Source: Candidatus Harrisonbacteria bacterium
GTDB lineage: Bacteria; Patescibacteriota; Minisyncoccia; UBA6257; UBA11618
DNA: 64,000 nt
Direction: 5' to 3'
Assembly (NCBI GenBank): GCA_016867415.1
Contig: VGJO01000001.1
Coordinates: 7,823-71,822, forward strand
This document shows, in pieces, positions 16,088 through 51,425 of this stretch. How positions within the stretch are numbered: position 1 is the first letter of the stretch; each line of letters opens with the position of its first letter. Position numbers and translations under genes: made by a program. Under the pieces are notes generated by a model that did not search any database, was not told the origin of the DNA, and saw only the letters and a list, made by a program, of their open reading frames with translations.

Positions 16088-16381
16088 GGCCCTCCAAAGG
16101 GGTGAATCTCTTTTATAAAAAAGTTGAAGACTTTTTATTCGCCCCTCCACCTCCCCTCTGATCTCCCTAATATCCCTTTTTCTCTAATAATGCGCTAAGA
16201 GAAACTTTTTATTTCCCTTGAATGGCTTTCTGGAGGAGAAAAGCATGGTTTTTTCATGATATTATTTTTTTCTTCTTATTCCCCAAAAATAACATCGTGA
16301 AAAATTTTCTCTGAAGCCTAAATAAAAAATTACTGGAGTTTTTATGGGTCATGAAGGGGAAAGAAAAAGTTTCTAAAAAAA
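16088..16381 (+). repeat. Family-X structured element, copy X2 (~290 nt)
   Basis: GGCCCTCCAAAGGGGTGAATCT..., hairpin AAAAAGTTGAAGACTTTTT, CCCCTCCACC, GGAGGAGAAAAGCATGG, hairpin ATGATATTATTTTT...AAAAATAACATCGT, TCATGAAGGGGAAAG, TTCTAAAAAAA. Confidence 0.5.
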
Positions 16382-28578: not shown

Positions 28579-28906
28579 GGCCCTCCAAAGAGGTGGATCT
28601 TTGTTTTCTAAACAGAGGATAGAAATATCGATTGAGTATAATCGACATTTCTATAAAAAGATTTTCAATCTTTTTATCTCCCCTCCACCCTCTTTTTTTC
28701 ATCACCTCTGAATCTCTACACTGCTAAAGAACCCTCACCCCTTCCATGAGTGACCTTTTGGAGAAAAGAAGCATAGTTTCTTGTAGTGATGTATTACCTG
28801 GATTCATCTCCTCAATACATAGCCATAAAAAATTATTTTCAAAAATTGCATGAAAGTTCGCTGGAACTTTCATGCATCTTGAAGGAAAGAGGTGAAGATT
28901 CTAAAA
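28579..28906 (+). repeat. Family-X structured element, copy X3 (~330 nt), immediately upstream of the T4SS-like cluster
   Basis: GGCCCTCCAAAGAGGTGGATCT, hairpin AAAAGATTTTCAATCTTTTT, CCCCTCCACC, TGGAGAAAAGAAGCATAG, hairpin GCATGAAAGTTCGCTGGAACTTTCATGC, TTGAAGGAAAG, TTCTAAAAAA. Confidence 0.5.
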
Positions 28907-28949
28907 AACACCCTAATCCCCATATCCATATATGCTAAAATACTAACTA

Positions 28950-29762
28950 ATGAAGCCGCCAAAAAAACTTATTTTTGGTATGGGAATTTTTTTAGCTGGT
29001 TTTGTATCCCTTATTATCTTCGGCAACCTCATTTCTCCTCCTCCCTCCACCCTTCCTTCCCAAAAATCCACTCAAGAAAATCATATAAATACTAAAAAAA
29101 TCTTCGAAAATTCATCTTCTTCCACCCCTCTCTATGAATCCCTCTCTGCCCTCAAAGAAGAGGGGACTAGCTCCACCCCCTCCGAGCTTAGCAAAGCCGA
29201 ATCCGCCATTAACCAAAAAATCGCCCAAGTTCTCACTTCCTTAAATCCCGAAGGGCCAATGAAATATGGAGATGAAGAGCTCTTGAAAGTCGAAGACCCT
29301 GAAGTCTTCGTAGATAAATATTTAAAAACCGAATTGAGCAAAATCACCGACATCATCGCTAAAGAATCCTTCCCCATAGTCTCTTTCCCTCAAGAAAAAA
29401 TTATTACAGCCTCCGATTCCTCTACTCTTCTTTCCTCTCTTCTCTTCCTCAAATCCTCGCTTGAAAAACATGAGCCAAAAGACGTGGATATGGAAAACAT
29501 TCTCACCGCCTACCAAAATCTGAAAATTGATTTGAAAAGTCGCCCCCTTTCCGAATCTCTCGTTCCTTTCTACGAACGCGAGCTCTCCCTGATCGAGCAA
29601 GATATAAAAAATATCATCCGCATCCAAAATGCCAAGCAGAGTCCCTTTGAAGCGATTATTGCTTATAAAAAACGAGAAGAAGTATTAAGTGCTTTCATGA
29701 CGCTAAAAAATGACATTAATACATTCGCCAAAAAAAATAAGCTTTCCTTTGAATGGCTATGA
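28950..29762 (+). CDS. Hypothetical membrane-anchored protein (270 aa), first gene of the T4SS-like cluster
   Basis: N-terminal TM helix LIFGMGIFLAGFVSLIIFGNLI, then a Ser/Glu-rich extracellular region. Confidence 0.45.
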   Translation: MKPPKKLIFGMGIFLAGFVSLIIFGNLISPPPSTLPSQKSTQENHINTKKIFENSSSSTPLYESLSALKEEGTSSTPSELSKAESAINQKIAQVLTSLNPEGPMKYGDEELLKVEDPEVFVDKYLKTELSKITDIIAKESFPIVSFPQEKIITASDSSTLLSSLLFLKSSLEKHEPKDVDMENILTAYQNLKIDLKSRPLSESLVPFYERELSLIEQDIKNIIRIQNAKQSPFEAIIAYKKREEVLSAFMTLKNDINTFAKKNKLSFEWL

Positions 29763-31147
29763 CCTCCACCCTTAAAAAAATTATTCTCTCCTTTCTTCTC
29801 TGTGGCCTTATCATTCCATTAGTTGTAAAGCCTCAAAAAGCGCACGCCATCTTCGGCCTCGGCATCGACGCCGTCGTTGAGCAGGTCTTTCGTAGTGCTT
29901 TGGAGGCTGCAAAGCGCCAAGCCCTCGCTCACATTACAAACAATATCATCGACTGGATTGAAAACGGTGGCTCCCCCCGCTTCATCACTAATTGGGAAAG
30001 CTTCTTCTCTGAAATCACTAATTCCATCACCACTCAATTTGTTGGCGAGCTCGGCCTCGGCTTCCTATGTTCTCCCTTTGGTTTCAATATCCAAATAAGC
30101 ATTAATCGCGCGCCCCGCTTTGCCACCTACGCCGCCTGTACTCTTGATACAGTCGTGAGCAACATTGAAAATTTTTATAATGATTTCCGAAATGGCGGCT
30201 GGATCGCCTTTGCTGAATCCTGGCAACCGCAAAATAATTACTATGGCTCCGTCCTTCTTGCTCTCCAGGAGCGTGATCGCCGCATTGCTCAGGAAGGTTT
30301 GACCGGCGCTATCAAATCCCTCGCCAATCAAGGCTTCCTATCCACGGAAAGCTGCCAAATCTTCAACGGCCGCGTGAATTGCCATATTACCACTCCCGGC
30401 CCTCAAGTCGCCGCCCTCTTATCCAAAGCCATGGGCACCGACATTGATTACATTGTTAATTCCCAGGAACTCTCCGTCTACGCCGCCGCCATCGCCGACG
30501 CCTTGATCAATCGCGCTATCCGTGCCGGCGCCGAAGGCATCTTAGGTCTTAAGGTCCAAAGGGCTGATGTCGTTACCGTCCTAAACACTGATCCCTGCTC
30601 CGGCCTCTCTGGTCCCAGCCTCCGTGATTGCCGCAAAGTCCCACCTCTTGAGCTCCAAGGCCTCTCTTTCGTCCAATCCGCATATATCCAAGAGATCGAC
30701 GCTACTCTCGCTCCTTTAAGCGAAGCGGAGTCCGCCTTGATCGACTCGGCCTACAGCACCGAAGAAGTAATAAATGATCTTACAAATCTCACCGCCTGCT
30801 CTACCCGCTACAATTTCACATCCAAAATAAATCTTATGGCGGAATTAATCTCAGAAACCACTAAACTTAATAATCTCCGTGCCGAAATCACTTCCCTCGA
30901 CGGCAACGTCCGCAGTCTCTTAAATGCCCGAGGATTTATCGGGAACGCTTCCCCGGGCGTCGGCGGCGCCGATGCAGTTGCCACCAATTTCTACAACGTC
31001 TCCGGCCTCCTCGATCCTAATCGGGCAATTTCTCTCTTGGAGACGAAGAGCGGCCAGTCTCTCAGCATCATCACTGAAAACAATCAGAAACTTATTAAAA
31101 TCCGAAGCGAGCTCAACGCCTGCCTCGCTTCTAGGCTAGGTCAATAA
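29753..31147 (+). CDS. Secreted cysteine-rich hypothetical protein (464 aa)
   Basis: Signal peptide ...KPQKAHA, 12 Cys residues, and a coiled-coil-like C-terminus. Confidence 0.5.
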   Translation: MAMTSTLKKIILSFLLCGLIIPLVVKPQKAHAIFGLGIDAVVEQVFRSALEAAKRQALAHITNNIIDWIENGGSPRFITNWESFFSEITNSITTQFVGELGLGFLCSPFGFNIQISINRAPRFATYAACTLDTVVSNIENFYNDFRNGGWIAFAESWQPQNNYYGSVLLALQERDRRIAQEGLTGAIKSLANQGFLSTESCQIFNGRVNCHITTPGPQVAALLSKAMGTDIDYIVNSQELSVYAAAIADALINRAIRAGAEGILGLKVQRADVVTVLNTDPCSGLSGPSLRDCRKVPPLELQGLSFVQSAYIQEIDATLAPLSEAESALIDSAYSTEEVINDLTNLTACSTRYNFTSKINLMAELISETTKLNNLRAEITSLDGNVRSLLNARGFIGNASPGVGGADAVATNFYNVSGLLDPNRAISLLETKSGQSLSIITENNQKLIKIRSELNACLASRLGQ

Positions 31148-31149
31148 CC

Positions 31150-33147
31150 ATGAAAACCATCTTCCGTTTTCTAAAAATATTCGCCCCCGCTCTCGCCCTC
31201 CTCCCTAATTTTGCCTTCGCCGCCCCGATGGATTGGTTTGGCAGCCAAATCTTGGCTGGTGGTATGGCTCTTGCGGTTCGCGTTATTCTCTTCATCTACT
31301 ATGTCTTAGGACAGATGGCCTCCGCCATCTTTGCCTTTAGCGCCGCCTTAGTTGAGCTTGCCGTTGACTTGAATTCCCGCATCATTCTCTCTCCTATAGT
31401 CCAAAACGGCTGGCTCATCATGCGTGACTTCACCAATCTCGGGATTGTGATCGCTCTTATCTTCATCGCCTTTGCCACGATGCTCAATATCGAAAATTAT
31501 GACCTGAAAAAAATCATCCCAAAGCTTGTCATCATCGGTATTCTTATTAATTTTTCCCTCTCCATCGCCGGTAGCTTAATCGATGGCACCGGCATCATCA
31601 GCAACTTCTTCGTTTATAAGATCAATGGGGGAGTAACGAGCACCGGCGGCCTAAGCAAGCTCACGGAAAATATTGGAACCGCTTTTCAACTTGAAAGCCT
31701 TCAGAAAACCACAACCCCCGAAGCCATTAAAAACTCTTCTTTTGATGATTTTTCCGCCGGCGCTCTTGGTCTCATCTTAAGCCTCTTTTTCGTCACCGCC
31801 TTCTCACTCTTAGGCGCTCTTGTAATGGGCATGATCGCCGCCCTCTTTATCGTCCGCTACATCTGGCTCATTCTTCTTTTAGTCGTCATGCCCATAGTCT
31901 GGCTTACTTTTGTCGTCCCTACCTGGAACAGGTACTGGAAAATCTGGTGGGAAAATTTTATCGGCCAACTTTTCTACGTACCGATCTCTCTCTTCTTTGT
32001 TTTCATCTCCATCCTTCTTGTCACTAATTATAAAAATGATCCTAATTCTATTATCCAGCTCTCTCAAGGTTTAAATATTAAAAATGAATTTTTCAATAAA
32101 AATTTCCTTATTAGAATTCAAGACTTCGCCGCCTCTGCCGGCCAAATGGTCATGGTTATGGGCCTTATGTATGGTAGTATTATTTTTTCCAAAAGTATTA
32201 GCAGTATGGGATCAGTAGCCATAGTTGGCGCTTTTGATCGAGCCGCTAAGTATGGCTTTAATAAGTCTAAGTCCTTTGCTAAAAATACCGCAATCGGCGC
32301 CGGCCGAGGAATTAAGACCTCCGTCTACAACACCACTGCGAAACCCTTTCTTCAATCCAATCTCGCCCAGTCTCTTGCAAATCGTTCTGCAGGTACGCCC
32401 GGACTCCGTGGCTTAGGCAGCTCCTTAAGCAACGCCATCACAAATCAGAAAGAAGCTGTAAATAGTCAGGTTACCGCCTATCAAAACAGCTATCTCAAAA
32501 ACCTTCCCTCAAGCAGCGCTGTCGCAAGTTATAGTGAAGGCACTGAAATAGAGCGTCTCGCTAAAGTTAGTGAGCTAAGCTCCCGTGAGAAAGGGGACAT
32601 AAGTGCCATCTTCGCCGGCCTAAAAGGCCCCGCCCTTAATAAAAAATTAACCTCCTACGTCGACTCCGCTAAAAATGCCGGAAATAAAGCCGCTGCCACC
32701 GCCCTCACTAAATTCTTCTTGAGAAACAAAACTCTTTTTGATGCAAAAACTCAGACTACTACCATGAATCGCCTTCTCGACCTTAATCGCGACCTAAAGA
32801 CCGACAAAGAGCTCTTAAAAACCAGCCCACATCTTGCAACCGAATTCGGCAAAAATATTGCCGAAGAAGTAAAGAAGATTAAACCGAGAGACATTATTGA
32901 GCTGGAGCGTGACGCCTTCGAAAATAATGAAGTGATCACCGCCCTCGAGAACTCTCAACTCTCCGAACTCGGTAAAAACGCCACTCCCGAAATCAAAGAT
33001 ATTATCCACACCCAGGTAAAAACCCTCCTTGCGAAAAAAGACACCATGACTCCCGAGCTCCAAGCTAAGCTTAATACTCTTGGCAAAATCATGAATACCC
33101 CCGCCTGGACCACTACAATCACAGTAGCTAAAAATCCTTCTCCTTAA
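31150..33147 (+). CDS. VirB6/TrbL-like polytopic membrane protein (665 aa) with a long hydrophilic C-terminal domain
   Basis: Signal/TM then at least 6 further TM helices in the first ~350 aa, followed by an ~300-aa soluble tail. The architecture and its position next to VirB3/VirB4-like genes are typical of the VirB6 family. Confidence 0.45.
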   Translation: MKTIFRFLKIFAPALALLPNFAFAAPMDWFGSQILAGGMALAVRVILFIYYVLGQMASAIFAFSAALVELAVDLNSRIILSPIVQNGWLIMRDFTNLGIVIALIFIAFATMLNIENYDLKKIIPKLVIIGILINFSLSIAGSLIDGTGIISNFFVYKINGGVTSTGGLSKLTENIGTAFQLESLQKTTTPEAIKNSSFDDFSAGALGLILSLFFVTAFSLLGALVMGMIAALFIVRYIWLILLLVVMPIVWLTFVVPTWNRYWKIWWENFIGQLFYVPISLFFVFISILLVTNYKNDPNSIIQLSQGLNIKNEFFNKNFLIRIQDFAASAGQMVMVMGLMYGSIIFSKSISSMGSVAIVGAFDRAAKYGFNKSKSFAKNTAIGAGRGIKTSVYNTTAKPFLQSNLAQSLANRSAGTPGLRGLGSSLSNAITNQKEAVNSQVTAYQNSYLKNLPSSSAVASYSEGTEIERLAKVSELSSREKGDISAIFAGLKGPALNKKLTSYVDSAKNAGNKAAATALTKFFLRNKTLFDAKTQTTTMNRLLDLNRDLKTDKELLKTSPHLATEFGKNIAEEVKKIKPRDIIELERDAFENNEVITALENSQLSELGKNATPEIKDIIHTQVKTLLAKKDTMTPELQAKLNTLGKIMNTPAWTTTITVAKNPSP

Positions 33148-33410
33148 AAACCTAACTCGAACAATAACCCCAGCCAATTCACCGACAAAGGCCTCGGCAT
33201 CTAACCATGAAGGCATTATAAGATCATTAAACGTTTTTCTTTTTTGCATTCTTAAATGTACTGGATTCCGGCTCGGTGGCCGGAATGACAATCCCTTCAA
33301 AACACTATATATGCCTTGTCTTGCCATAGCGTACTCACGAAGGAGGAGAGGATTTTACGATTTTCTTTATAAATAAATTAAAAATATAGCCCGTCGCCAA
33401 GCGCAGGATT

Positions 33411-33589
33411 TTTGAGTCGAGTTTACGATTTATTTCTGAGGACAAGCCCGGGAGCACTACTAAGAAAAAGGTATGTCGAAGGTATGGAGTACTCTCCGTA
33501 CCGGAGATCTCGAGTGCTCTCGAGGTGAAGGACTTACTGGAAGAAAAAATCGCAAAATTGGCCAAAAAGACAAGCGCCCTACAAGCTAA
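33411..33589 (+). repeat. Family-1 structured repeat, copy E (carries a ~60-nt internal insertion)
   Basis: GCGCAGGATTTTTGAGTCGAGTTTACGATTTATTTCTGAGGAC......GGAAGAAAAAATCGCAAAATTGGCCAAAAAGACAAGCGCC. CGATTT and AAATCG are complementary. Confidence 0.55.
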
Positions 33590-33612
33590 TCAAATATAGT
33601 ATAATACTACTA

Positions 33613-34515
33613 ATGAACCTCGCTTTAGCCTTCCTCTCCCTCCCCGAACCCGTAAAAGATTGGTTTGGCTCGCTCGAGCTCGCTGATCGGCTTTCTGATG
33701 TAAACAACTCTCTTGGTCTGGTAGGGGATAACGAATCTCTTTTAAGCAATCTTCTCCTCCGCATCATCACCCTTGATCTCGATATCCGCGACCTTATAAA
33801 CGAGCTTGGTCTTCTCCTGCAAATAAATGAAGGGAAAGCAAAAGAAATTGCCGCCACTCTCATAAAAACCACTCTCACCCCCATAGAAAAAGAATTAATT
33901 CCTTTAGGAATTAATGTGAGGGACGGACTCGCAAACCCCAGCCTTCCCGACTCCAGACTTTCCACTTTTGGTAATACCCCCCGCCCAATAACACCGGAAA
34001 TAAATCCGCTCGCTACCCCTCTTTCTCCTAAATCCGAAGCTTTCTTTAAAAACATTCCTCTTCCGCAATCTCCCCCTTCCTTTAAAGAAGGGGATTCTCC
34101 TTCTAAAGCCTTCTCCAAAACCCCGATTACTCTCCCTCCTATCTTCGAATTTAGCGAGAACAGACAAGAAGAAAAAAAAGAAAAAAATTTCACCCCTCCC
34201 GAAAATCTTCCCTTAGTTCACCAAAAAGAAGCCTCGCCCTTTATTCTCCATGAAGAGAAGGCAGAGCAAACAATAAATATCTCTCAAACCCCTTCGTTTA
34301 CATACACCCCTTCCATCACCGAAATCCCTAAAAAAGAAGAGGTAATAGTCAGCTCTATAGAAGGTTTAGCTCCCGTAATTCCGCCCACCGCCCAAAAAGT
34401 CATTCATTATACCTCCTACAAGACCGAGCTTAATCACGCCTTTTCCTCCATTCCATCCGCTAAAAAAGATCTGGAATCGAAAATAAAAAAACCTCTTTCT
34501 CATTGGTTTATATGA
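33613..34515 (+). CDS. Hypothetical Pro-rich protein (300 aa)
   Basis: ORF in the cluster; no TM helix and no domain recognised. Confidence 0.4.
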   Translation: MNLALAFLSLPEPVKDWFGSLELADRLSDVNNSLGLVGDNESLLSNLLLRIITLDLDIRDLINELGLLLQINEGKAKEIAATLIKTTLTPIEKELIPLGINVRDGLANPSLPDSRLSTFGNTPRPITPEINPLATPLSPKSEAFFKNIPLPQSPPSFKEGDSPSKAFSKTPITLPPIFEFSENRQEEKKEKNFTPPENLPLVHQKEASPFILHEEKAEQTINISQTPSFTYTPSITEIPKKEEVIVSSIEGLAPVIPPTAQKVIHYTSYKTELNHAFSSIPSAKKDLESKIKKPLSHWFI

Positions 34516-34994
34516 ATTTCCAAGTCCCTCAATTCATCGATATTGAAGATCGGATTATTGGTCCGCTCACATTAAAGCAATTCGGCTATCTCGCCATCGC
34601 TTTTCTTCTCTCTTTCTTCTCTTTTTTTATCTTCACTTTTCTTATCTGGGTACTCATCACTCTCCTTGTAGCCGCAATCAGCATTCTCTTCGCCTTCATC
34701 CGCTACAACGAGCGCCCTTTTTCTATTCTTTTCCTCTCCGTCGTTTCATTTGCCTTTCATAAAAAGAAATATCGCAAAAATATTAGCGGAGAAGAGGAGG
34801 GTAAAAAAGAGATTCCTCAAAGCCACCTCGGCGATCTCACTCTCGCCCTAGAGACGAGTACCGCCCCGATGAAAAACGAACGCTCCTTTTTAAAACCCTT
34901 CCTTGATTCCTTACGTGAAGAAAAAGACCGCTACGAAATCCTAAAAAAGATCACTGGAGAAAAAGAGGTCGCAAGAAGAATTGATTACCGATAA
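34503..34994 (+). CDS. PrgI/VirB3-like small membrane protein (163 aa)
   Basis: N-terminal ...VPQFIDIEDRIIGPLTLKQFGYLAIAFLL... followed by two TM helices. Its position directly before the VirB4-like ATPase is as in Gram-positive T4SS. Confidence 0.45.
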   Translation: MVYMNFQVPQFIDIEDRIIGPLTLKQFGYLAIAFLLSFFSFFIFTFLIWVLITLLVAAISILFAFIRYNERPFSILFLSVVSFAFHKKKYRKNISGEEEGKKEIPQSHLGDLTLALETSTAPMKNERSFLKPFLDSLREEKDRYEILKKITGEKEVARRIDYR

Positions 34995-35628
34995 AGTCAT
35001 GGACAATAAAAATACACTCGGATCAGCCTTTGATCTCTTCCCAATCAAAGAAATCAAAAATAACATCATCTTCCTCAATGATGGCGGTCTCCGTAAAATC
35101 CTCCTCGTCTCCGGCGTTAATTTTGAATTAAAGTCTGAACAAGACCAAAATGTCTTAATCTATACTTTCCAAGACTTTCTAAACTCTCTCAAATTCCCGC
35201 TTCAAATCATCATTCATTCCCGAAAATTAAACATTGCTTCATATCTCGAAAATATCCGCGCCGTTGAGAATATGGAAAAAAACAAACTCCTCCAAAGCAT
35301 CATGAAAGATTATGGGAACTTTGTCGGTGATTTTGTGAAAAATAATCCTATAATGGAAAAAACCTTTTTTGTCGTCGTTCCGTATGATTCCTTTTCGCTA
35401 AGTAGCGCTAAGGCTTCTTTAAAAACATTATTTGGTAAAAAAATAACAGCCACCGAAGAGTCTGAGAACGAACACAAAGAAAAGGTAAAAAATATCGGTC
35501 TTCGCATCGATGAAGTGATGGCTGGGTTAAGCCGTATTGGTCTCCGCTCCGTCGCCTTGGAAACTGAAGAGTTAATTGAATTATTTGAAAACTTTTCTCA
35601 TCCAAAAACTATCGAAAATCATTCTTAG
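34981..35628 (+). CDS. VirB4/TraC-like protein, N-terminal domain encoded as a separate ORF (215 aa)
   Basis: ...IKNNIIFLNDGGLRKILLVSGVNFELKSEQDQNVLIYTFQDFLNSL... resembles the VirB4 N-terminal domain. The ORF ends 218 bp before the ATPase ORF. Confidence 0.45.
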   Translation: MITDKVMDNKNTLGSAFDLFPIKEIKNNIIFLNDGGLRKILLVSGVNFELKSEQDQNVLIYTFQDFLNSLKFPLQIIIHSRKLNIASYLENIRAVENMEKNKLLQSIMKDYGNFVGDFVKNNPIMEKTFFVVVPYDSFSLSSAKASLKTLFGKKITATEESENEHKEKVKNIGLRIDEVMAGLSRIGLRSVALETEELIELFENFSHPKTIENHS

Positions 35629-35846
35629 AATTAATCTTAAAAATATTGTCCATCCAAAAGCCCATGAAACGCGAACCAAAAGATAAGTTTGAAATCAAAG
35701 AGAACCCTCGTTCATTAGGAAAGAAATGAATTCTTTTATCTAGGTTTAGTGAGCTGACGATGACAAAATAAAATAATGCTTCAAATAACTTCTGTTAAAA
35801 TACTTTATCTATTTTTTGTGGTATTTTTGAGATGAGTTCTAGATAA

Positions 35847-37538
35847 ATGGAAAATACAAACGAAGTAAAAAATAAAATCACTCCCGAATCTCTTGATATC
35901 TACTCGAGTAAGCTTAAGGTAGGGGATAAATTTGTAAAAATTATTTTCCTCTTAAATTATCCTCGCTACGTCAGCGTAGGCTGGTTTTCACCCATCGTAA
36001 ACGCACCGGAACTCATGGACATCTCCCTACATTTTGATCCGGTCGAAACTGCAGCCGCTCTAAAAAATCTCAAAAAAAAGACAGCGCAGATCGAAGCCCA
36101 GATCTTCGAACGGGAAGAGCAAGGCCTTATTCGCTCGCCCGAGCTGGAAACCGCCCACCACGATATTGAGACTCTTCGCGACGTTCTTCTCCAAGCCACG
36201 GAAAATCTTTTCAAAGTCAGCGCTTATATTGCTCTTTATGCGGACGATGAATCCTCATTAAACCGCCTGGAAAATAAAATCAGCAACATACTCGAAAGCC
36301 GCCTTATTAATGTAAAAACCGCTATCTTCGAACAACTCTCTGGCTTTCGCTCTATTCTCCCTTTAAATAAAAATGAATTAGAAGTTTCTGCTTTTTTCAA
36401 CTCCTCTCCCGCTTCCTCTTTCTTTCCGTTTGTGAGCGCCACTCTCACTTCTAATAAAGGTGTTCTGCAGGGTATTAATCTTGAAAATAATACTCTTATT
36501 ATTTTTGATCGCTTCTCTTTGGAAAATGCTAATAAAGTCATCTTCGCTACCTCCGGCTCCGGTAAATCCTACGCTGCCAAACTCGAAGCCCTCCGTGAGC
36601 TTATGTTTGGCACCGACGTCATCATCATTGATCCGGAAAATGAATATAAAAAACTCGCCGAATCCGTCGGCGGCACCTTTATTAATATTTCCTTAGCTAG
36701 TAAGGAACATGTAAACCCTTTTGATATTCCTATCATCCCCGAAGATGAAAATCCTGCCGACGTTCTAAAGTCTCACATAGTAAATCTCGCGGGCCTAATC
36801 AAGATGATGCTTGGTAAAATCGAGCCCGAAGAAGAAGCCTTAATCGACAGAGCTATCTCCGAGACCTATGCCGCTTTTGATATCTACCCCGGCAGCAACC
36901 TTAAGAATATTAAGACCCCCCTCCTTTCCGACCTCGAATCCGTCCTGAGAAATCTTGAAGGTGGAGAAAAAATCGCCAGCCGCCTCTACCGGTTTACGAA
37001 CGGCAGCTACGCCGGTTTTAGCAATAAAGAAACAAATATTAATATTAATAATCGGCTCGTCGTCTTCTCTATCCGAGATCTTGAGGAAGAACTCCGTCCG
37101 ATTGCTATGTATGTGATCTTAAACTACATCTGGAATCTTATTAAAAGCGAAAAGAAGAAACGTATCCTAATCGTTGATGAAGCCTGGTGGATGATGAAAT
37201 ATCCTGACGGTGCTTCCTTCCTCTTTGGTCTTGTAAAGCGCGCCCGCAAGTATTATCTAGGAGTCACCACCATCACCCAAGATGTTGAAGATTTCCTCCT
37301 CTCCTCATACGGCCGACCAATCCTGACCAACTCCTCTCAAAAGCTTCTGTTAAAGCAGCAGCCCGCTATGATTGACACTCTGGTTAAGACCTTCAATCTC
37401 ACCGAGAATGAAAAAATTCTCCTCCTCGACGCCGAGGTGGGGGAGGGCCTTTTTTTTGCCGGCTTAAAGCATGTGGTAATCAAAATTGTCGCCTCCGACC
37501 TTGAAGATGAAATAGTAAGCACTAAACCTGCCTCATGA
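35847..37538 (+). CDS. VirB4/TrbE/CagE-family T4SS ATPase, C-terminal ATPase portion (563 aa)
   Basis: Walker A FATSGSGKSYAAK, Walker B ILIVDEAWWMM, and ...GVTTITQDVEDF..., the conserved VirB4 C-terminal motif. Confidence 0.8.
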   Translation: MENTNEVKNKITPESLDIYSSKLKVGDKFVKIIFLLNYPRYVSVGWFSPIVNAPELMDISLHFDPVETAAALKNLKKKTAQIEAQIFEREEQGLIRSPELETAHHDIETLRDVLLQATENLFKVSAYIALYADDESSLNRLENKISNILESRLINVKTAIFEQLSGFRSILPLNKNELEVSAFFNSSPASSFFPFVSATLTSNKGVLQGINLENNTLIIFDRFSLENANKVIFATSGSGKSYAAKLEALRELMFGTDVIIIDPENEYKKLAESVGGTFINISLASKEHVNPFDIPIIPEDENPADVLKSHIVNLAGLIKMMLGKIEPEEEALIDRAISETYAAFDIYPGSNLKNIKTPLLSDLESVLRNLEGGEKIASRLYRFTNGSYAGFSNKETNININNRLVVFSIRDLEEELRPIAMYVILNYIWNLIKSEKKKRILIVDEAWWMMKYPDGASFLFGLVKRARKYYLGVTTITQDVEDFLLSSYGRPILTNSSQKLLLKQQPAMIDTLVKTFNLTENEKILLLDAEVGEGLFFAGLKHVVIKIVASDLEDEIVSTKPAS

Positions 37539-37828
37539 AGAAAATATTCTTAGCCGAAGCCGCCCCTCTCATTATCTTTTCTGTTATTATCGATCTTATT
37601 GAGCTCACCGCCGTTGGTGGCCTCTTTACCAGTATTCCCTCAATTATCCTATTCATTATTATTCGCGAGTATCTTAATATAAAAGGAGCAAAGAAAAATT
37701 ACCTCTTCTGGCTATCCTTCTTTGACTATTTCCCAATCATAAACATCCTCCCTTTAAAAACCACAGCACTTGTGATTTCCATAACCTTCCATAATCATGC
37801 GGCTGCTAAATTTAACTCTGCTTCCTAA
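37535..37828 (+). CDS. Small hydrophobic membrane protein (97 aa)
   Basis: Three predicted TM segments; start overlaps the upstream stop by 4 nt. Confidence 0.4.
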   Translation: MKKIFLAEAAPLIIFSVIIDLIELTAVGGLFTSIPSIILFIIIREYLNIKGAKKNYLFWLSFFDYFPIINILPLKTTALVISITFHNHAAAKFNSAS

Positions 37829-38453
37829 ATCACTCCTTTTTTTCACTATTCTTTCTTCCATTTTTTTGTTGCCAAAAAATAGCCTGGCCACTCCCTCCCT
37901 TTTTATTAATTGGAAAGCCTTAACCCTTTCCTCTGATTCCTATTCCGGTAAAAATCTTCCCACTCCCGGCTCTCAAGTAGAGCTTGGAATCTTTGCTTTA
38001 GATGGCAATCAACTAACAAATCTAAAAACCGCCGATGTTTTCTGGTACCAAAATGAAAATCTTATTAAGAAAGGCTCAGGCCTTTCTCATATCACCCTCA
38101 CTCTTGATGAGTCCGGCACCCCAACTACCATCAGAGTGAAAGTAAAAAAGGACGACACTATTATCGAAGGACTTACTATCATAAACCCGGTCTCATCCAA
38201 TCTCTACATTGAAGTGAAAAAAACTATCTCTAAAAGCTCCGTCTTTTTTGCTCGCCCTCTCTTCTTTAATGTTAATAATCTAGAAAATCTTTCCTTTGAA
38301 TGGGAAGCGGGCGGAAAGAAAGTGGTCGGACCCAGTTCTCTTACTCTAAGCGTCCCTCCGGAAATTGATTCTATTCTCTTAAAAAGCACGGTAAAAAATA
38401 AAACTCGCAAAGTGGAGCAAGTAAGTGAAACTATTTCCCTTAAAAATGGCTAA
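37797..38453 (+). CDS. Secreted hypothetical protein (218 aa)
   Basis: Signal peptide ...NSLATPS; beta-rich composition. Confidence 0.45.
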   Translation: MRLLNLTLLPKSLLFFTILSSIFLLPKNSLATPSLFINWKALTLSSDSYSGKNLPTPGSQVELGIFALDGNQLTNLKTADVFWYQNENLIKKGSGLSHITLTLDESGTPTTIRVKVKKDDTIIEGLTIINPVSSNLYIEVKKTISKSSVFFARPLFFNVNNLENLSFEWEAGGKKVVGPSSLTLSVPPEIDSILLKSTVKNKTRKVEQVSETISLKNG

Positions 38454-39243
38454 ACATTATCTTTATATACTTCTTTTTTGTCTTTCCTTTGCCCTAATGA
38501 ATCTAGGAGGGGTAGTCTTAGCCCAGACTAAAGCCTGCGGCCCTAATGGCTTAAACTACACGCTCTGTGTTCCTCTACCAGGTCAAAAATCCCCCACTGT
38601 ATCTGGTCTTGATCAATACATCGCCGCCATCTTCACCCTTGCCCTCTCTATTGCCGGCCTCCTCGCCTTCATGCGCCTCCTCTATGGTGGCATCATCTAT
38701 ATTATCTCTTCGAGTAGTGTGGTTAAAAAAGACTATGCCAGAGAGGTAATGAACAAATCCCTCTTGGGTCTCCTTCTTTTATTTGCCGGAACTCTCATTC
38801 TTTATTTTATTAATCCCGATCTTCTCTACGTCGGCCGTATTTTCTCCGACGCTAATCGTATTGGTATCACTGGTCTCGATGATCTAAAAGTAAAACGCAT
38901 TGAAGAATTTAAAGCCACTAATGAAGCGGCAAAAATACAAGAAGAGCAAGATCGGGCTGAATGGATGTTTCGCTACCAAAAAGAGACAGAGTCTCTTAGT
39001 CGGGAAAAAGAATCCTTAAGCGACAATCTTTCATATCTTATGAATAGCTATGGGCAAAATATAAGTAGTAGGGGGAGCGCCGCCGAACGTACCCGCCTCG
39101 AAAGCGAAATTAAGGCTCGCAACACCGAGCTCCTTAAGGTTCACTCCACTCTTCAAGGCATCGAGCAGGAATATCGTCTCTATAATAATAAAAAAGATTC
39201 TATCATTCCCATTGAATTCGACATTTCTAATATTCGGCCATAA
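38425..39243 (+). CDS. VirB2/TrbC-like pilin candidate with a C-terminal coiled-coil extension (272 aa)
   Basis: Signal peptide ...VLAQT, then TM1 (AAIFTLALSIAGLLAFMRLLYGGIIYI) - loop - TM2 (LLGLLLLFAGTLILYFI), then a heptad-like tail. Confidence 0.45.
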   Translation: MKLFPLKMAKHYLYILLFCLSFALMNLGGVVLAQTKACGPNGLNYTLCVPLPGQKSPTVSGLDQYIAAIFTLALSIAGLLAFMRLLYGGIIYIISSSSVVKKDYAREVMNKSLLGLLLLFAGTLILYFINPDLLYVGRIFSDANRIGITGLDDLKVKRIEEFKATNEAAKIQEEQDRAEWMFRYQKETESLSREKESLSDNLSYLMNSYGQNISSRGSAAERTRLESEIKARNTELLKVHSTLQGIEQEYRLYNNKKDSIIPIEFDISNIRP

Positions 39244-39245
39244 CC

Positions 39246-40361
39246 ATGAAAAAATATCTTATTAGTATCGGTTTCATAATAATCTTCCTTGGACTTCTTT
39301 ATTCTGCTTATCTTCTCACTAAAGAAACCTCAGAAAACACTTCAAAAGAAGACGTGGCAGTGATAGTGGAAGAAAAAAAAGAAGCTATTCCTACCGAAAA
39401 TATAATAAAACTTAAAGCTTCACTTCTCTCTGAGAGTCCTGTGGTCTGGTACTCTCCTTTCTCTTTTACCTCTACCCCCGGAACTACTACCATCGACACT
39501 CTCTCTCCCTCCGCCACTGATCAAAATATTCTTTCTTTATCCCGATCTCTACCAATATCCGACTTTACCTTAAGCCCTTCTGGCCGCTTCTCTCTTATTG
39601 AGCTGGGCAACAGCCCAATCCACACCCTGACCGTCTTCGACCGAAAAACAAACTCTCTTATCTCTCTTGGCGCGACCCCAATAAGCGCCGCCTTCATTCC
39701 CGGCTCCGATACCGAAGTTTTCGTCCTAGAAAAAAATATTGGAATAAAAAGAGTAAACCTCGAAAAAAAGACTGAAAAAATTCTCTTAAGCCTCGATCTT
39801 GTGGAAGCCGATATTACTCCGCTCTCCGTCTCCGAAATCCTTGTTTCTGAAAAAGCCGATCCTGACACAAAAGAAAAAACTTTTCTCGTAAACACAGTAA
39901 ATCAGACTGTCACCCTTATTAACGAAGCTCCTGTAAGCCTCTATAAAAATATCAACGCCTTCTATCTCGAGTATAAAGAGGCCGACAACACTCCCGAAAT
40001 CATTCTTAAAGATTCCATCACTAAAAAAGAAATTATCAACTTTAAAAACGCCCTAGGCGGCGAGAATAATTTCACCCTCCCCTCAAAATGTGCTGGTAAA
40101 GACGCGCTCGTCATCTGTGCCTTCCCTCAAGAAGTAATTAATAAAAATAATTTTAGCAACCGCTACACTCGTGGCGAAGAATACCCTAGAGACGATCTCT
40201 ACTCCTTCGAGATTCGCAAAGGAGAGGGGATAGTGAAACGCCACCTTATCTTCTCCTCCACCGACTCCGAATCCTACCAATTCAAAAATCTCTTCATCCT
40301 CAACTCCACTCTCTACTTCATTAACCACCAAACCGACCTCCTCCACTCCCTCCCCCTCTAA
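39246..40361 (+). CDS. Hypothetical membrane-anchored or lipoprotein-like protein (371 aa), last gene of the cluster
   Basis: N-terminal TM helix, Ser/Thr-rich linker, and a beta-rich C-terminal domain. Confidence 0.45.
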   Translation: MKKYLISIGFIIIFLGLLYSAYLLTKETSENTSKEDVAVIVEEKKEAIPTENIIKLKASLLSESPVVWYSPFSFTSTPGTTTIDTLSPSATDQNILSLSRSLPISDFTLSPSGRFSLIELGNSPIHTLTVFDRKTNSLISLGATPISAAFIPGSDTEVFVLEKNIGIKRVNLEKKTEKILLSLDLVEADITPLSVSEILVSEKADPDTKEKTFLVNTVNQTVTLINEAPVSLYKNINAFYLEYKEADNTPEIILKDSITKKEIINFKNALGGENNFTLPSKCAGKDALVICAFPQEVINKNNFSNRYTRGEEYPRDDLYSFEIRKGEGIVKRHLIFSSTDSESYQFKNLFILNSTLYFINHQTDLLHSLPL

Positions 40362-40438
40362 TAAAGTTAATATCCACCAGATATTACTCCAGTGGTCATT
40401 TACCTTTTATTATTCTAAAATTTATATAAATAAAAAAA

Positions 40439-40867
40439 CTAAATAGGCTTAATAACCACTCTTCTATTCTTACCCTCTCCTTCACTTTCCGTCTTCACAT
40501 CCGGCCGTATTGAAAGCTCCTCATGCACAATCCTCCTCTCATATGCATTCATCACCGGCAACTTCACTTCTCCTTTAGAAAACACTGCTTTCTTCGCCGC
40601 CGCTTTCGCAAGATCTGAAATAATCCGCTCCCGCTCTTTCCGATAATTATTCACATCAATCCGGATCGGCTCCCGATTTTCCTTAGTGGCCTTAAGTCGT
40701 TCTAAAAGCAATAAAGATCCCACAATCTCCGAAAGCCACCGCTTCAACCATTCTCCTTCATAAAGAAAGATGAGAAGCCTATTTTCTTCCAGATCAAAAT
40801 CAATCGAAAAATCGCTAAACCCCGCTTGTTGGAATAGATTCTGATAAAAGCCCTTGATCTTGTCCAT
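40439..40867 (-). CDS. Jag-like RNA-binding protein (KH/R3H domains)
   Basis: C-terminal R3H ...ERRIVHEELSIRPDVKTESEGEG.NRRVVIKP. It sits downstream of yidC as in the conserved yidC-jag pair. Confidence 0.75.
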   Translation of the reverse strand: MDKIKGFYQNLFQQAGFSDFSIDFDLEENRLLIFLYEGEWLKRWLSEIVGSLLLLERLKATKENREPIRIDVNNYRKERERIISDLAKAAAKKAVFSKGEVKLPVMNAYERRIVHEELSIRPDVKTESEGEGKNRRVVIKPI

Positions 40868-41546
40868 AAATTATTCTCGTAATATACACCTGTTGGACTA
40901 AAGAAAAAAGGGTGCTCGTAAGCCAATAAAGGCCCACTGCCGAAGGTAAGGTTCCTAAGATAAGTAAGGTAAGAATTGGTCCAATAACCATCATTTTCTT
41001 CGCTATATTCCGAGCTTGTGCACCCTCCTTGGTCCCAGTATCTTTTGGTAATGACACCATTCCTAAGAAGTATTGAGCCGCCGCGGTAATAAGAGTCAAC
41101 GCATAACTCCGTTCTGAAAGATTAAGAATAGATAAAAAATTAGTTATGATTATTTCTGGCCGGCTTATAAACGAGTATAAATTTTGATCCAGAGTCGCTG
41201 GAGTAACTCCCGCAAGAAATACATTATAAATAGCGATAAAAATAGGAATCTGAATAAGAATAATAAGAAAACCAGAAAAAGGGTTAATTTTATATTCTTT
41301 ATAAAGAGCCATGATTTTTTCCGTCTGCACCTGGCGATCATCTTTATGTTTTTCCTGAATCTCTTTAATCATCGGCTGAATCTTAGTTATTAAAACCTGA
41401 TTCTTCATACTCTTATAAAAGAGAGGGTAAAGAATCAGACGAATAAGGATAGTGATAAGAATAATTGCGAAGCCAAAATCACCTAAAAGATTATTAAGTA
41501 CTACAAGCGCATTAAATATTGGTTGAGTTAAAAGTTGATTAAACAT
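40815..41546 (-). CDS. yidC: Membrane protein insertase YidC (short form)
   Basis: ...ILIRLILYPLFYKSMKNQV...MALYKEYKINPFSGFL.ILIQIPIFIAIY... is the YidC/Oxa1 core. Confidence 0.85.
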   Translation of the reverse strand: MFNQLLTQPIFNALVVLNNLLGDFGFAIILITILIRLILYPLFYKSMKNQVLITKIQPMIKEIQEKHKDDRQVQTEKIMALYKEYKINPFSGFLIILIQIPIFIAIYNVFLAGVTPATLDQNLYSFISRPEIIITNFLSILNLSERSYALTLITAAAQYFLGMVSLPKDTGTKEGAQARNIAKKMMVIGPILTLLILGTLPSAVGLYWLTSTLFSLVQQVYITRIIYGQDQGLLSESIPTSGV

Positions 41547-41850
41547 AAAAGAGACTTGATAAGTCTTTAATTATTTCCTCTTGATTTCCAGTTTTCTGGA
41601 TAATAATAAAGTATTTTCCTGAAGGAAGCGATAGGAATTTTTCTTGAATAATCCTATAAATAAGTCGCTTTAAAATATTCCGATCAACCGCCTTTAAAAC
41701 CACTTTTTTCGCCACCGACACTGCAAATCTCGCTCGACCTTCTTTTTCAGGATACTTTTTTAACAAGAAAAAAGACGCCTTCGAATATTTTCTCTCAAAT
41801 CCTCGTAAAGGAAGAGATTGAATTGGAAAGCGCCTTTCTTTTGAAAGCAT
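41539..41850 (-). CDS. rnpA: Ribonuclease P protein component
   Basis: ...RFAVSVAKKVVLKAVDRNILKRLIYRII... is the RnpA signature, and the rpmH-rnpA-yidC order is conserved. Confidence 0.8.
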   Translation of the reverse strand: MLSKERRFPIQSLPLRGFERKYSKASFFLLKKYPEKEGRARFAVSVAKKVVLKAVDRNILKRLIYRIIQEKFLSLPSGKYFIIIQKTGNQEEIIKDLSSLFYV

Positions 41851-41853
41851 TTA

Positions 41854-41988
41854 TTAAACAGTAAGCTTTGCTCGACCCTTCGCCCGCCGTCGTGCTAAAA
41901 CCTTCTTACCACTCGCACTCTTTGAACGTTTTAAAAATCCGTGAGTCCGTGCTCGCTTCTTCTTTTTTGGTTGATATGTCGTTGACAT
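41854..41988 (-). CDS. rpmH: 50S ribosomal protein L34
   Basis: Translated by hand: [44 protein letters not shown]. It is not in the ORF track because it is under 60 aa. Confidence 0.9.
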
Positions 41989-42015
41989 AATAAAAGATTA
42001 TAGCATAAAAAAAAG

Positions 42016-42024
42016 TTTTCCACA
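42016..42024 (+). promoter_or_regulatory. DnaA-box-like 9-mer TTTTCCACA in the rpmH-dnaA intergenic region
   Basis: One mismatch from the TTATCCACA consensus. Confidence 0.4.
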
Positions 42025-42090
42025 AATAATCCCCAAAAAAATATTTTCTTCTTTTTTGACCTTATCTGAGTTCTATCTAAAATAGAGTCT

Positions 42091-43449
42091 ATGAACGAAA
42101 CCCAACTCTGGGAAAAGGCACTGAGCGATCTCGAACTAGAAATTCCTCGGCCGAACTTTCTTACGTGGTTAAAGAATAGCCAAATTGTAGAAATGACTGA
42201 TGGAGGAGTAAAAGTTGGACTCGCCAGTCGCTTTGCTCAAAGTTGGGTAGAAAAACATTATCCAATTATTATTTTAAAAGCTCTTCGGAATTTAAATGAT
42301 TCTATTAAGAGGGTAGAGTTTACTGTCATCACTAAGAATATAAATCGTTCCCAACTCCCAAAGGTAGAAACTCGCCTCGATGATTACCAACAAACTTTTG
42401 AGCCCGCCACCGATCCCGAAACTTCTCTTAATCCTAAATACACCCTAAAGTCCTATGCTGTTGGTTCTTCAAATGAAATGGCTTTTGCCGCTATAAATGC
42501 AATTATCGAAAACGTCGGAAAAAAATATAACCCCCTCCTTATCTATGGTGGTGTTGGTGTTGGTAAGACTCACCTTATTCAGGCAGCCGGTAATGAAATA
42601 AAAAATCGCTATGGCACTAAATGTAAGATTCGCTATGTTCACGCTGAAAAATTCATTAATGATGTAGTCCATGCGATGCGTACTCAAAATATGCATACAG
42701 TTAAAAGCCGTTACCGGGATATTAATGTTCTTATAATCGACGATATTCAATTCATCGCTGGTAAGGCAAAAACAGAAGAAGAATTCTTCTATACCTTCAA
42801 CACCCTTAAAGAAGATAATAAACAAATAATTATTTCCTCCGATCGACCTCCTAAATCCATGCCTAATCTCGAAGAACGCCTTCGTTCTCGTCTCGATTCT
42901 GGTATGATTATTGATATTTCCCCACCAGATTATGAGCTCCGCATTGCTGTTTTAAAAAATAAATTAGAAGAAAAAAACCTCTCTCTCGATCCAGTTATTA
43001 TTAGTGAAATTGCTACTAAAGCCGAAAAAAGCCTCCGAGATCTCGAAGGAATAGTAAATAAAATTCAGTTCTATAAAGATCATAAAAAAGCAGAGATTAC
43101 CTCTAAAGTTATTAATGAAATTATCGGAAATAGTTCTCTTCAAAAAATTAATAAACTCGCCAATCCTAATGAAATAATTAAAATTGTCTCTAATTATTTT
43201 GAAATCACCACCCAAGACATTATTGGTCGATCCCGAAAACAAGAAATAGTCGAGCCTAGGCAAATCGCTATTTTTCTCTTACGAGATATTCTTAATATGT
43301 CTTATCCCGCTATAGCCGGAAAATTAGGAAAACGCGATCACACGACCGCTATCTATGCCTACGACAAAATTAAAAAAGAAATTGAACAAAATCAGTCCCT
43401 TAACCAAAAAATAATCTCTATTAAAGATCTTATAGAATCCTCTTGTTAA
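42091..43449 (+). CDS. dnaA: Chromosomal replication initiator DnaA
   Basis: AAA+ Walker A GGVGVGKTHL, Walker B LIIDDIQF, and the C-terminal DNA-binding signature ...IAGKLGKRDHTTAIYAYDKI. Confidence 0.95.
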   Translation: MNETQLWEKALSDLELEIPRPNFLTWLKNSQIVEMTDGGVKVGLASRFAQSWVEKHYPIIILKALRNLNDSIKRVEFTVITKNINRSQLPKVETRLDDYQQTFEPATDPETSLNPKYTLKSYAVGSSNEMAFAAINAIIENVGKKYNPLLIYGGVGVGKTHLIQAAGNEIKNRYGTKCKIRYVHAEKFINDVVHAMRTQNMHTVKSRYRDINVLIIDDIQFIAGKAKTEEEFFYTFNTLKEDNKQIIISSDRPPKSMPNLEERLRSRLDSGMIIDISPPDYELRIAVLKNKLEEKNLSLDPVIISEIATKAEKSLRDLEGIVNKIQFYKDHKKAEITSKVINEIIGNSSLQKINKLANPNEIIKIVSNYFEITTQDIIGRSRKQEIVEPRQIAIFLLRDILNMSYPAIAGKLGKRDHTTAIYAYDKIKKEIEQNQSLNQKIISIKDLIESSC

Positions 43450-43780
43450 AAATTCTTATTTATTAATTATTTTTTCTTAATTATAAATGAAGATTTTTTT
43501 ATTTAATAAAGTACTTTTAATAAAAAATATAAGAAAAAAGAATGTTTGTACAAGTTGTTAATAAGAAGTATAGAAAGAAGGGAAAGTCTGGGGAAAAAAA
43601 AGAAAAGACCAAGATAATTTGAAAAAGAAAAGAGAATGTGGAAAAGTATCAGTAGTTATAGACAAGATACTTTTAGAAAAAACTTCGATTTTACAATAAA
43701 GAAAATCACTTTTCCACATATTCTCACCCCCTAATAATCCTAAAGTTTTAAAAATAAAAAAAACAAAAAATACGTAGAAA
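43450..43780. other. Putative oriC: AT-rich unwinding region plus two inverted TTTTCCACA DnaA-box-like motifs (43637-43645 reverse, 43710-43718 forward)
   Basis: Position between dnaA and dnaN, very high AT content for the first ~110 bp, and two boxes ~65 bp apart. The 167-aa minus-strand ORF here is spurious. Confidence 0.5.
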
Positions 43781-51070: not shown

Positions 51071-51092
51071 AGTAAAGATGAATAAAGGCCAT

Positions 51093-51246
51093 TGATCTGT
51101 GGGCACAGTCACGAAATATAAATATATGTGACATAACCAATTCCCTTTTAATAAATAAAAGAGTTAGAATCTCCTTGAGGAGTAGCCCAGCCGAAACCAA
51201 GCTATCCGGGTGCTAAAAGAAATTCCCGCCCACAGATCAATAGCCT
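51093..51246. repeat. Element bounded by a perfect 14-bp inverted repeat (ATTGATCTGTGGGC ... GCCCACAGATCAAT) within the 710-bp pilB-ruvB intergenic region
   Basis: Direct reading. It has an internal hairpin GTCACGAAATATAAATATATGTGAC and no ORF. Confidence 0.45.
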
Positions 51247-51425
51247 CTATTTCTAGTGATTTTCAAGCTCCTAACCATTTGATCATAGCATAGTAAAATT
51301 CATTTGTCAATAATTCCGCCTTTTTTTAAAAAAAACTATAAAAACTGGAAAATGAGTTTTTCCTTCATTTCTTCCTTAATTTTCCTAAAAACATTACACT
51401 CTAAAAAAGCCGAAGCGGAGAAAAC

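Follow-up and report, generated by a model that had tools for sequence, protein, structure and literature searches.

A VirB4-type ATPase probably encoded by two genes, with a putative insert between them, in Candidatus Harrisonbacteria

Type IV secretion (T4SS) loci of Patescibacteria are often located near the replication origin, and in about 1,660 cases they contain a gene for TrsD, TraC-like in Pfam, that adjoins virB4 (Quinonero-Coronel et al., Microb Genom 2025, PMC12102498). In that work TrsD is termed a remote homologue of unknown function, and a TrsD homologue is essential in Southlakia (PMC12102498). Epibiotic growth of Patescibacteria has also been reported to require the T4SS. A similar pair, TrsD/TrsE, is found in MPF-FATA systems of the pGO1/pSK41 type, where a VirB4-N homologue of ~200 aa is placed just upstream of a shortened VirB4. 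VirB4 is a single chain in TrwK of R388 (PDB 7O43, 8RTB) and in fused proteins of some Paceibacteria, and in the Mycoplasma ICE family of Mbov_0397 (NF045975) VirB3 and VirB4 are fused in a protein of 894 aa.

The locus described here would belong to a type IV secretion cluster that Candidatus Harrisonbacteria (Paceibacteria, Patescibacteria) carries on the chromosome, close to the origin. We consider, with a probability of roughly 85%, that ORF1 and ORF2 of this locus encode two subunits of a single VirB4-type ATPase that are translated separately, that the split is old, and that an insert of ~213 nt lies between both genes in this species. The two-gene architecture has already been published as TrsD + VirB4, ORF1 being the "TrsD" of PMC12102498; overall, the locus is ordinary and of an already known kind.

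The VirB4 genes and their neighbourhood

The window, that is, the whole 64-kb stretch of DNA analysed, contains the two ORFs on its plus strand at the positions given by the original prediction, ORF1 at 34981-35628 and ORF2 at 35847-37538. Between them is an AT-rich, non-coding spacer of 218 bp (35629-35846), with a GC content of 29% against about 34-52% in the flanks. In the ORF list, ORF1 is a maximal ORF of 215 aa starting at TTG 34981; a start at ATG 34999, giving 209 aa, is more likely, since this codon is located 4 nt past the stop of the preceding PrgI gene and is the start used in the gene calls of a JGI assembly (L092) and a Logan assembly (L094). With this start the separate gene for the N-terminal module extends over 34999-35628 (plus strand). 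ORF2 (563 aa) is in a different reading frame, and its start at a new ATG, as predicted, is unambiguous because an in-frame TAA is found directly before it. None of the start codons in the cluster is preceded by a Shine-Dalgarno motif.

Alignment of both ORFs to VirB4 profiles, the check suggested together with the original prediction, showed that they tile one VirB4 protein with neither overlap nor gap, nothing being missing or duplicated, to an extent far beyond chance. The matches of ORF1 are confined to the N-terminal part of the profiles: positions 11-184 of 792 in TIGR00929 (E 5e-9), 98-237 of 894 in NF045975 (E 1.4e-9) and 13-141 of 752 in NF045971. ORF2 continues with the middle domain and the P-loop ATPase, the VirB4 core, and aligns with positions 184-732 of 752 of NF045971, the CD1110-type VirB4 (377.9 bits, E 9.7e-113); the curated cut-off of this profile, 325 bits, is passed by ORF2 alone. 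Further Pfam matches of ORF2 are P-loop_TraG, AAA_10, DUF87 and CagE_TrbE_VirB. The cut-off of TIGR00929 (VirB4_CagE), 643 bits, was missed by ORF1 (34.9) and by ORF2 (122.4); both are divergent, monoderm-type sequences. The joined ORFs (772-778 aa) are colinear with single-chain homologues of 780-793 aa, in agreement with the proposal that a total of ~780 aa is the normal VirB4 length. An N-terminal and an ATPase domain within one polypeptide of ~800 aa are not found here, as the N-terminal region comes from ORF1. The junction is positioned in a variable linker 3' of a conserved NPxxxEK motif. In ORF2 both Walker A (FATSGSGKSY) and Walker B (ILIVDEAW) are intact, and 24 homologues (alignment A1) all share amino acids G237, G239, K240, S241, D444 and E445.

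The relationship of ORF1 to TrsD was reflected in a match of its residues 18-133 to positions 17-142 of 201 of the TrsD/TraD model NF041427; the score was 21.1 bits (E 2.2e-4), missing the cut-off of 200, and by sequence ORF1 would be only a remote homologue of staphylococcal TrsD/TraD. The TraC-like family PF26593 is precomputed for the identical products of 209 aa or 215 aa in three other assemblies (L092, L093 and L086) and for 120/120 homologues; scanned locally against Pfam, ORF1 matched no family. When the AlphaFold model of ORF1 (pLDDT 75) was compared with the PDB, the top 14 structures were all TrwK/VirB4 chains of R388. The resemblance to the N-terminal region of TrwK is modest, with TM-scores of 0.38-0.46 at about 10% identity, and searching PDB sequences with the profile of the N part gave no match. 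The model of the fused homologue P0161 (pLDDT 50) was too poor for the linker or the interface to be considered.

Both genes are part of a co-oriented T4SS-type cluster (29753-40361, plus strand) made up of a 464-aa ORF, a 665-aa ORF, a 300-aa ORF, PrgI, the two VirB4 genes, three small ORFs and a 371-aa ORF. The gene located immediately 5' of the N-terminal module (34503-34994, plus strand) encodes a PrgI / VirB3-like small membrane protein (Pfam PrgI, E 2.5e-9, 38 bits for a cut-off of 27). One of the three small ORFs (38425-39243) encodes a pilin-like protein with a weak T4SS_pilin match (E 0.0015); relatives have the same gene order, and in them the equivalent gene matches PF18895, T4SS_pilin. 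VirB6 might be expected in the place of the 665-aa ORF, which gave no family match, and no clear repeat or feature was seen in a 465-nt gap within the cluster (33148-33612). Directly downstream is the neighbourhood of the replication origin (40439-44890), with jag(R3H)-yidC-rnpA-rpmH on the minus strand followed by dnaA and dnaN on the plus strand (Pfam R3H, 60KD_IMP, Ribonuclease_P, Ribosomal_L34, Bac_DnaA and DNA_pol3_beta). From the set of features that defines the Patescibacteria T4SS locus in PMC12102498, a TrsD-like gene, PrgI, VirB4, a weak pilin-like match and the near-origin location are present, and VirB6 is unconfirmed.

The spacer between both genes

The original prediction placed the oddity of the locus in the split. 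Judging from the related loci, the two-gene VirB4 is the conserved norm in this bacterial group, as the TrsD + VirB4 pair of PMC12102498 also indicates, and it is the 218-bp spacer alone, absent in the closest relatives, that appears to be peculiar to the species. In relatives the gap between the N and C genes has a median of 4.5 nt and is of at most 15 nt in 49/74 loci. Since the genes abut or overlap in relatives, with gaps of 5 nt (L081), 0 nt (L082-L084) and -4 nt (L085) in the closest ones, the spacer is best read as an insertion of about 213 nt specific to this species. The spacer recurs in five other assemblies of the species; among the four contigs read, besides which four more are on record, three were base-identical in the spacer and its flanks (L092 from JGI, and L093 and L094 from different Logan runs), and a further Logan assembly (L086) had one extra A in a homopolymer run.

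The spacer is bounded by an imperfect inverted repeat of 20 nt, detected by a repeat search, whose arms are 85% complementary and separated by 176 nt. The left arm (35626-35645, plus strand) begins with the ORF1 stop codon TAG, and the right arm (35822-35841, plus strand) stops 5 nt short of the ATG of ORF2. In 1000 dinucleotide shuffles the ends never reached 17/20, the maximum being 15, and the arms pair with each other in the minimum-free-energy fold of the spacer; apart from this terminal stem, the fold of the whole spacer is not unusual (z -1.45 and -0.6 on the two strands). TA or TAG is found at both spacer ends and belongs to a palindromic TTCTAGAA-like repeat end. No coding remnant was found among the six-frame segments (no Pfam match at E up to 10). 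With Rfam, the whole window gave at the gathering threshold only two tRNAs, located elsewhere, and the spacer gave at E up to 10 only chance-level matches.

Most of the relatives' spacers of at least 47 nt that were folded are long hairpins, and at the same junction inverted repeats flank small ORFs in two relatives, PDDEXK_3 in L008 and 23S_rRNA_IVP in L026. The N/C junction was considered as an insertion hot spot and rejected, as the preceding operon junction has a similar share of long gaps (gaps of at least 60 nt in 11/71 loci against 15/74 at the N/C junction). We propose that a non-coding segment of ~213 nt with its 20-nt imperfect inverted repeat would have been inserted exactly between the stop and the start codon. 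We read it as a selfish insert, hairpin-type or MITE-like and of presumed mobile origin, similar to those scattered over the intergenic junctions of these genomes. The spacer would be a small example of hairpin-bounded inserts between tightly coupled genes, one with no evident functional weight.

A functional spacer, acting as internal promoter of ORF2, small RNA, RNase III site or stem that restores translational coupling, is an unlikely alternative, despite the suggestive arrangement of the ends, where the ORF1 stop is included in the left arm and the right arm is close to the ORF2 start, and despite a TGnTATTTT motif at 35819-35827 which, by eye, resembles an extended -10 element. The spacer belongs to no Rfam family and its fold z-scores are not unusual; the promoter/terminator scan yielded nothing usable, the sole promoter match on the plus strand having its -10 hexamer 3' of the ATG. 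Moreover, the closest relatives, which have no spacer, function with abutting genes, and hairpin inserts of unrelated sequence are as common at the preceding junction as they are here. The conservation of the spacer among strains, with 0 differences compared with 7 in the 4-kb locus, carries no weight, as ~0.4 would be expected in 218 bp.

A scan of metagenomes with a pattern derived from the arms in the window recovered five elements of ~200 nt which share the terminal repeat AGAAGTYATCTNAAAAA and have perfect repeats and unrelated interiors. The flanking genes of the five elements look non-CPR, an impression gained from their ORFs. Four of them (L087-L090) gave nothing in Rfam, and a literature search for the terminal-repeat sequence found nothing. 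The scan missed the window locus itself, the scanned collection apparently being one without this genome. The right arm of the window fits the AGAAGTYATCTNAAAAA consensus at 16/17 positions and the left arm at 14/17, a likeness to be read with the fact that the search pattern itself forced most of the similarity of the five elements to those arms. It is conceivable, though doubtful, that non-autonomous elements of ~200 nt with this terminal repeat form a family spanning phyla, to which the spacer belongs as a diverged member, and that the stem of the spacer is not neutral. In that case the stem would juxtapose the ORF1 stop and the ORF2 start, which would restore coupling or create an RNase III site between the genes of the two VirB4 subunits.

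Conservation of the split

The comparison of orthologous loci, also suggested beforehand, showed the same two-gene layout with the same split point in 76/78 informative related loci of Paceibacteria, counted at species level. The 120 best ORF1 homologues are all stand-alone proteins of 206-236 aa, and 98/120 of the best ORF2 homologues have ~565 aa; the C parts of fused orthologues are 63-66% identical to ORF2. When the states were mapped by parsimony on a neighbour-joining tree, "split" was found at the root of the sampled set and fused forms in at least three clades. On account of this distribution, the fused forms may have arisen by re-fusion, and TrsD may have long existed as a gene of its own instead of being the product of a recent fission.

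The original prediction had offered a genuine split, a pseudogenised gene and a sequencing or assembly frameshift without choosing among them; from these only the first stood. Considering that: (i) 76/78 loci share the layout; (ii) both halves are under purifying selection; (iii) the Walker motifs are intact, and (iv) the spacer is present in other assemblies, a genuine split gene is supported.

It is very improbable that an insertion disrupted a formerly intact virB4 and left the two ORFs as decaying remnants of it. The spacer is indeed an insertion relative to the nearest relatives, and ORF1 and ORF2 are in different frames, but those relatives already have stop and start codons 0-5 nt apart, and the split of the 76/78 informative relatives occurs without any insert. 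The dN/dS of the C part is 0.03 against L081, and the N part retains 78% protein identity with the nearest relative (dN 0.15) despite saturated synonymous sites. Both Walker motifs are preserved and nothing is missing at the junction.

It is likewise very improbable that both ORFs still yield a single polypeptide by recoding, be it readthrough of the stop codon, frameshifting or a ribosomal bypass of the spacer like that of T4 gene 60. The inverted repeat could join the take-off and landing sites, and in 12-13 relatives both parts are in one frame with a single stop codon between them. However, in the window the frames differ, and the landing site of a bypass would have to be the ORF2 ATG itself because of the in-frame TAA directly before it. 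The relative frames of the N and C genes look random among relatives (about 17/78 share a frame), which fits independent genes; nearly all C parts start with their own ATG, a few nt from the N stop, and the lengths of stand-alone N and C parts are tightly conserved.

A sequencing or assembly artefact, that is, a frameshift or mis-join that mimics a split, has in its favour only the prior that metagenome-assembled genomes contain errors and is practically dismissed by the agreement of the JGI and Logan assemblies, by the fact that 218 bp cannot be added by a frameshift and by the near universality of the split in relatives.

A two-chain VirB4 compared with known systems

In the separate-subunit reading that we favour, ORF1 would provide the N-terminal module, whose counterpart in single-chain VirB4 contacts VirB3, and here ORF1 directly follows the VirB3-like PrgI gene; ORF2 would provide the middle domain and the RecA-type ATPase. 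By analogy with the R388 structures, the two chains can presumably reassemble non-covalently, since the break falls in a variable linker. The two-gene state would be old and held by selection across the class, corresponding to the TrsD + VirB4 pair of Patescibacteria and of Gram-positive plasmids of the pGO1 type. As a consequence of the insert, ORF2 would need its own initiation, with a possible effect on expression; independent initiation looks unproblematic, as none of the genes of the cluster carries a Shine-Dalgarno motif.

The spacer resembles MITEs and the cassettes of L026 and L008 (23S rRNA intervening-sequence protein and PDDEXK_3/GxxExxY, respectively) in being short, AT-rich and flanked by terminal inverted repeats, and in being inserted exactly between genes at a site that is empty in close relatives. 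It differs from the cassettes in that it has no ORF or remnant and no sequence in common with them, and from MITEs in that searches of the 64-kb window and of the related loci L001-L080 revealed no further copy and its ends show no clear target-site duplication.

The profile of the Mycoplasma ICE protein, NF045975, is matched in order by PrgI (20-115), ORF1 (98-237) and ORF2 (292-893), which are the same three modules; they are fused in Mycoplasma and all three are separate here, the scores being far below the cut-off. With single-chain VirB4, such as TrwK or the fused Paceibacteria proteins (e.g. P0161), the pair shares the domain order, the total length and the catalytic motifs, and it differs in consisting of two polypeptides instead of one. 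The fused orthologues within the clade would thereby indicate where the T4SS motor of Patescibacteria can naturally be divided for expression or modelling.

The closest system is the TrsD + VirB4 pair. As in those loci, the two genes are chromosomal, close to the origin and accompanied by PrgI/VirB3, a pilin-like gene and, putatively, a VirB6-like gene, whereas 218 bp separate them here and they do not abut. The present comparison goes beyond PMC12102498 in that the fused orthologues show the pair to be colinear with a single VirB4. Hence, the "hypothetical protein" 5' of a short VirB4 in Paceibacteria would be the detached, TrsD-like N-terminal module of VirB4, to be annotated and modelled together with it.

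A VirB4 in two consecutive genes

Both ORFs stand where the original prediction had placed them when checked in the ORF list of the window, ORF1 at 34981-35628 of the plus strand (215 aa counted from TTG) and ORF2 at 35847-37538 of the same strand (563 aa). Their reading frames differ, and an in-frame TAA lies immediately 5' of the ORF2 ATG. As the start of ORF1, ATG 34999 (209 aa) is more plausible than TTG 34981, since it is located 4 nt past the PrgI stop and is used in the recorded gene calls for two other assemblies of the species, L092 (JGI) and L094 (Logan).

The profiles matching ORF1 do so only with their VirB4 N-terminal stretch (TIGR00929, 11-184 of 792; NF045971, 13-141 of 752; NF045975, 98-237 of 894), and the TrsD/TraD model matched it weakly in the profile search. 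ORF2 is matched by NF045971 from position 184 to 732 of 752 with 377.9 bits, exceeding the curated cut-off of 325, and also contains P-loop_TraG, AAA_10, DUF87 and CagE_TrbE_VirB middle domain matches. The assignment of ORF1 to the N-terminal domain and of ORF2 to the middle and ATPase domains is borne out and, judged from the profiles, ORF1 and ORF2 together tile VirB4. In the alignment the joined product is colinear with homologues that are single chains of 780-793 aa. The break lies in a variable linker that follows a conserved NPxxxEK motif; the linker of the fused homologue P0161 is as long as that of the joined product. For the AlphaFold model of ORF1 (pLDDT 75), each of the 14 best PDB matches was a TrwK/VirB4 chain from the R388 system, at a modest TM-score of 0.38-0.46. 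Moreover, PrgI, ORF1 and ORF2 correspond to consecutive segments of the VirB3-VirB4 fusion profile of Mycoplasma ICEs.

Conservation of the split

The best 120 homologues of ORF1 are all stand-alone proteins of 206-236 aa, and among the best 120 of ORF2, 98 measure about 565 aa and the other 22 are fusions of 780-793 aa. Comparison of orthologous loci, proposed with the original prediction, was carried out on 80 loci from different GTDB species using HMMs of the N and C parts. The split occurs at the same point in 76 of them; two are fused (L012 and L015) and two are cut by contig ends. Recoding into one chain is disfavoured, because the relative frame of both genes is apparently random across the related loci and the C part has an ATG start of its own in nearly all cases, as expected of independent genes.

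Regarding the three options originally considered, only the genuine split stands. Against L081, the nearest distinct relative, the C part has a dN/dS of 0.03 and the N part retains 78% protein identity with saturated synonymous sites, and no Walker A or Walker B residue varies in the alignment of homologues; together with the conserved split, these results refute a pseudogene. A sequencing or assembly error is refuted by the assemblies from JGI 3300020200, SRR7990525 and SRR16108670, base-identical over the spacer and its flanks, and by that from ERR14822405, with one extra A in the spacer region. Hence, ORF1 and ORF2 are a genuine split gene.

The spacer insertion and other repeats

The unusual feature is the spacer, not the split. 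Located at 35629-35846, it has the predicted size and AT-richness (218 bp, 29% GC, with flanks of about 34-52% GC). In relatives, the gap between N-part stop and C-part start has a median of 4.5 nt and is at most 15 nt in 49 of 74; only the window (218), L008 (462) and L026 (497) exceed 150 nt. Since the gap is 5 nt in L081, 0 nt in L082-L084 and -4 nt in L085, the closest relatives, the spacer is, on sequence comparison, a species-specific insertion of ~213 nt. Its ends form a 20-nt inverted repeat, 85% complementary (35626-35645 and 35822-35841), whose left arm opens with the ORF1 stop codon and whose right arm stops 5 nt before the ORF2 ATG. Dinucleotide shuffling gave no equally good terminal repeat in 1000 sequences and no equally good repeat anywhere in 150. 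The spacer has no Rfam match and no recognisable coding remnant, and a search of the window and of the related loci L001-L080 gave no second copy; its nature is the residual curiosity.

At the same trsD-like/virB4 junction, L008 (3494-3955) and L026 (3405-3901) carry inverted-repeat-flanked inserts with a small ORF, of the PDDEXK_3 family (GxxExxY-type, E 1e-29) and the 23S rRNA intervening-sequence protein family (E 7e-34), respectively. Such families are usually noted within rRNA intervening sequences; these cassettes are placed between protein-coding genes. Among the spacers of 47-119 nt folded for other relatives, long hairpins of unrelated sequence predominate. The share of long gaps is similar at the preceding operon junction, which rules out the N/C boundary as a special insertion hot spot; rather, hairpin inserts occur at the intergenic sites of these genomes in general.

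Scanning metagenomes with the repeat arms of the window, three positions being left free, yielded five elements (L087-L091) of about 200-226 nt with perfect terminal repeats AGAAGTYATCTNAAAAA and unrelated, hairpin-rich interiors. Their gene contexts look non-CPR. Protein-coding genes flank at least four of the elements on both sides, in L089 a putative etfB and etfA pair as judged by eye. Rfam gave no match for L087-L090, and a literature search on AGAAGTYATCTNAAAAA elements found nothing. Kinship with the spacer is only possible, since the similarity is mostly forced by the scan pattern itself.

Elsewhere in the window, a ~175-nt element is present in three intergenic plus-strand copies (6556-6729, 16200-16374 and 28744-28908; 72-74% identical), the third just upstream of the ORF preceding the T4SS cluster. 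Its consensus fold is Y-shaped with 63 pairs, 21 of them preserved through two-sided changes in three copies only. No Rfam family was matched at the gathering threshold, and the element may be a new structured RNA or a repeat of the hairpin type. A 171-nt intergenic segment (51081-51251), unrelated in sequence to the other elements, is bounded by inverted repeats (24-nt arms, 92% complementary).

The cluster and its place among Patescibacteria T4SS

PrgI, both VirB4 genes and a pilin-like gene form a co-oriented T4SS cluster adjoining rpmH-rnpA-yidC-jag and dnaA-dnaN; a 665-aa ORF at the possible VirB6 position had no family match. Between this ORF and a 300-aa ORF, in the otherwise tightly packed cluster, 465 nt (33148-33612) lack a plus-strand ORF and any clear repeat; the counterparts of the flanking genes in L082 are 14 nt apart, and a TATAGTATAAT motif lies just 5' of ATG 33613.

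Two conserved genes under selection together constitute one complete VirB4. We propose that both chains associate to build a functional ATPase, whose N module would connect PrgI, the VirB3-like protein, with the motor in the manner of the TrwK N-terminal domain in the R388 structures. The insert removes the stop/start proximity of the relatives, and ORF2 would be initiated independently. This should be tolerated, as the cluster genes lack a Shine-Dalgarno motif: none of the 12 start codons inspected (T4SS cluster, dnaA and dnaN; 29753-44890) carries one, which suggests Shine-Dalgarno-independent initiation in this organism.

Quinonero-Coronel et al. (2025, PMC12102498) described 2,272 TrsD homologues, 1,664 of them VirB4-associated, in T4SS loci often near the replication origin, and mention that the Southlakia epibionticum homologue has been listed as essential. 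The window agrees with these TrsD and VirB4 loci in every respect; the two-gene VirB4 is therefore already known and ordinary for the lineage. To that description the present analysis adds: (i) the exact colinearity of same-clade fused orthologues with ORF1 and ORF2; (ii) the interleaving of split and fused states in a neighbour-joining tree of weak rooting, with at least three fused clades, and (iii) a repeat-bounded insert between the two VirB4 genes in the species of the window.
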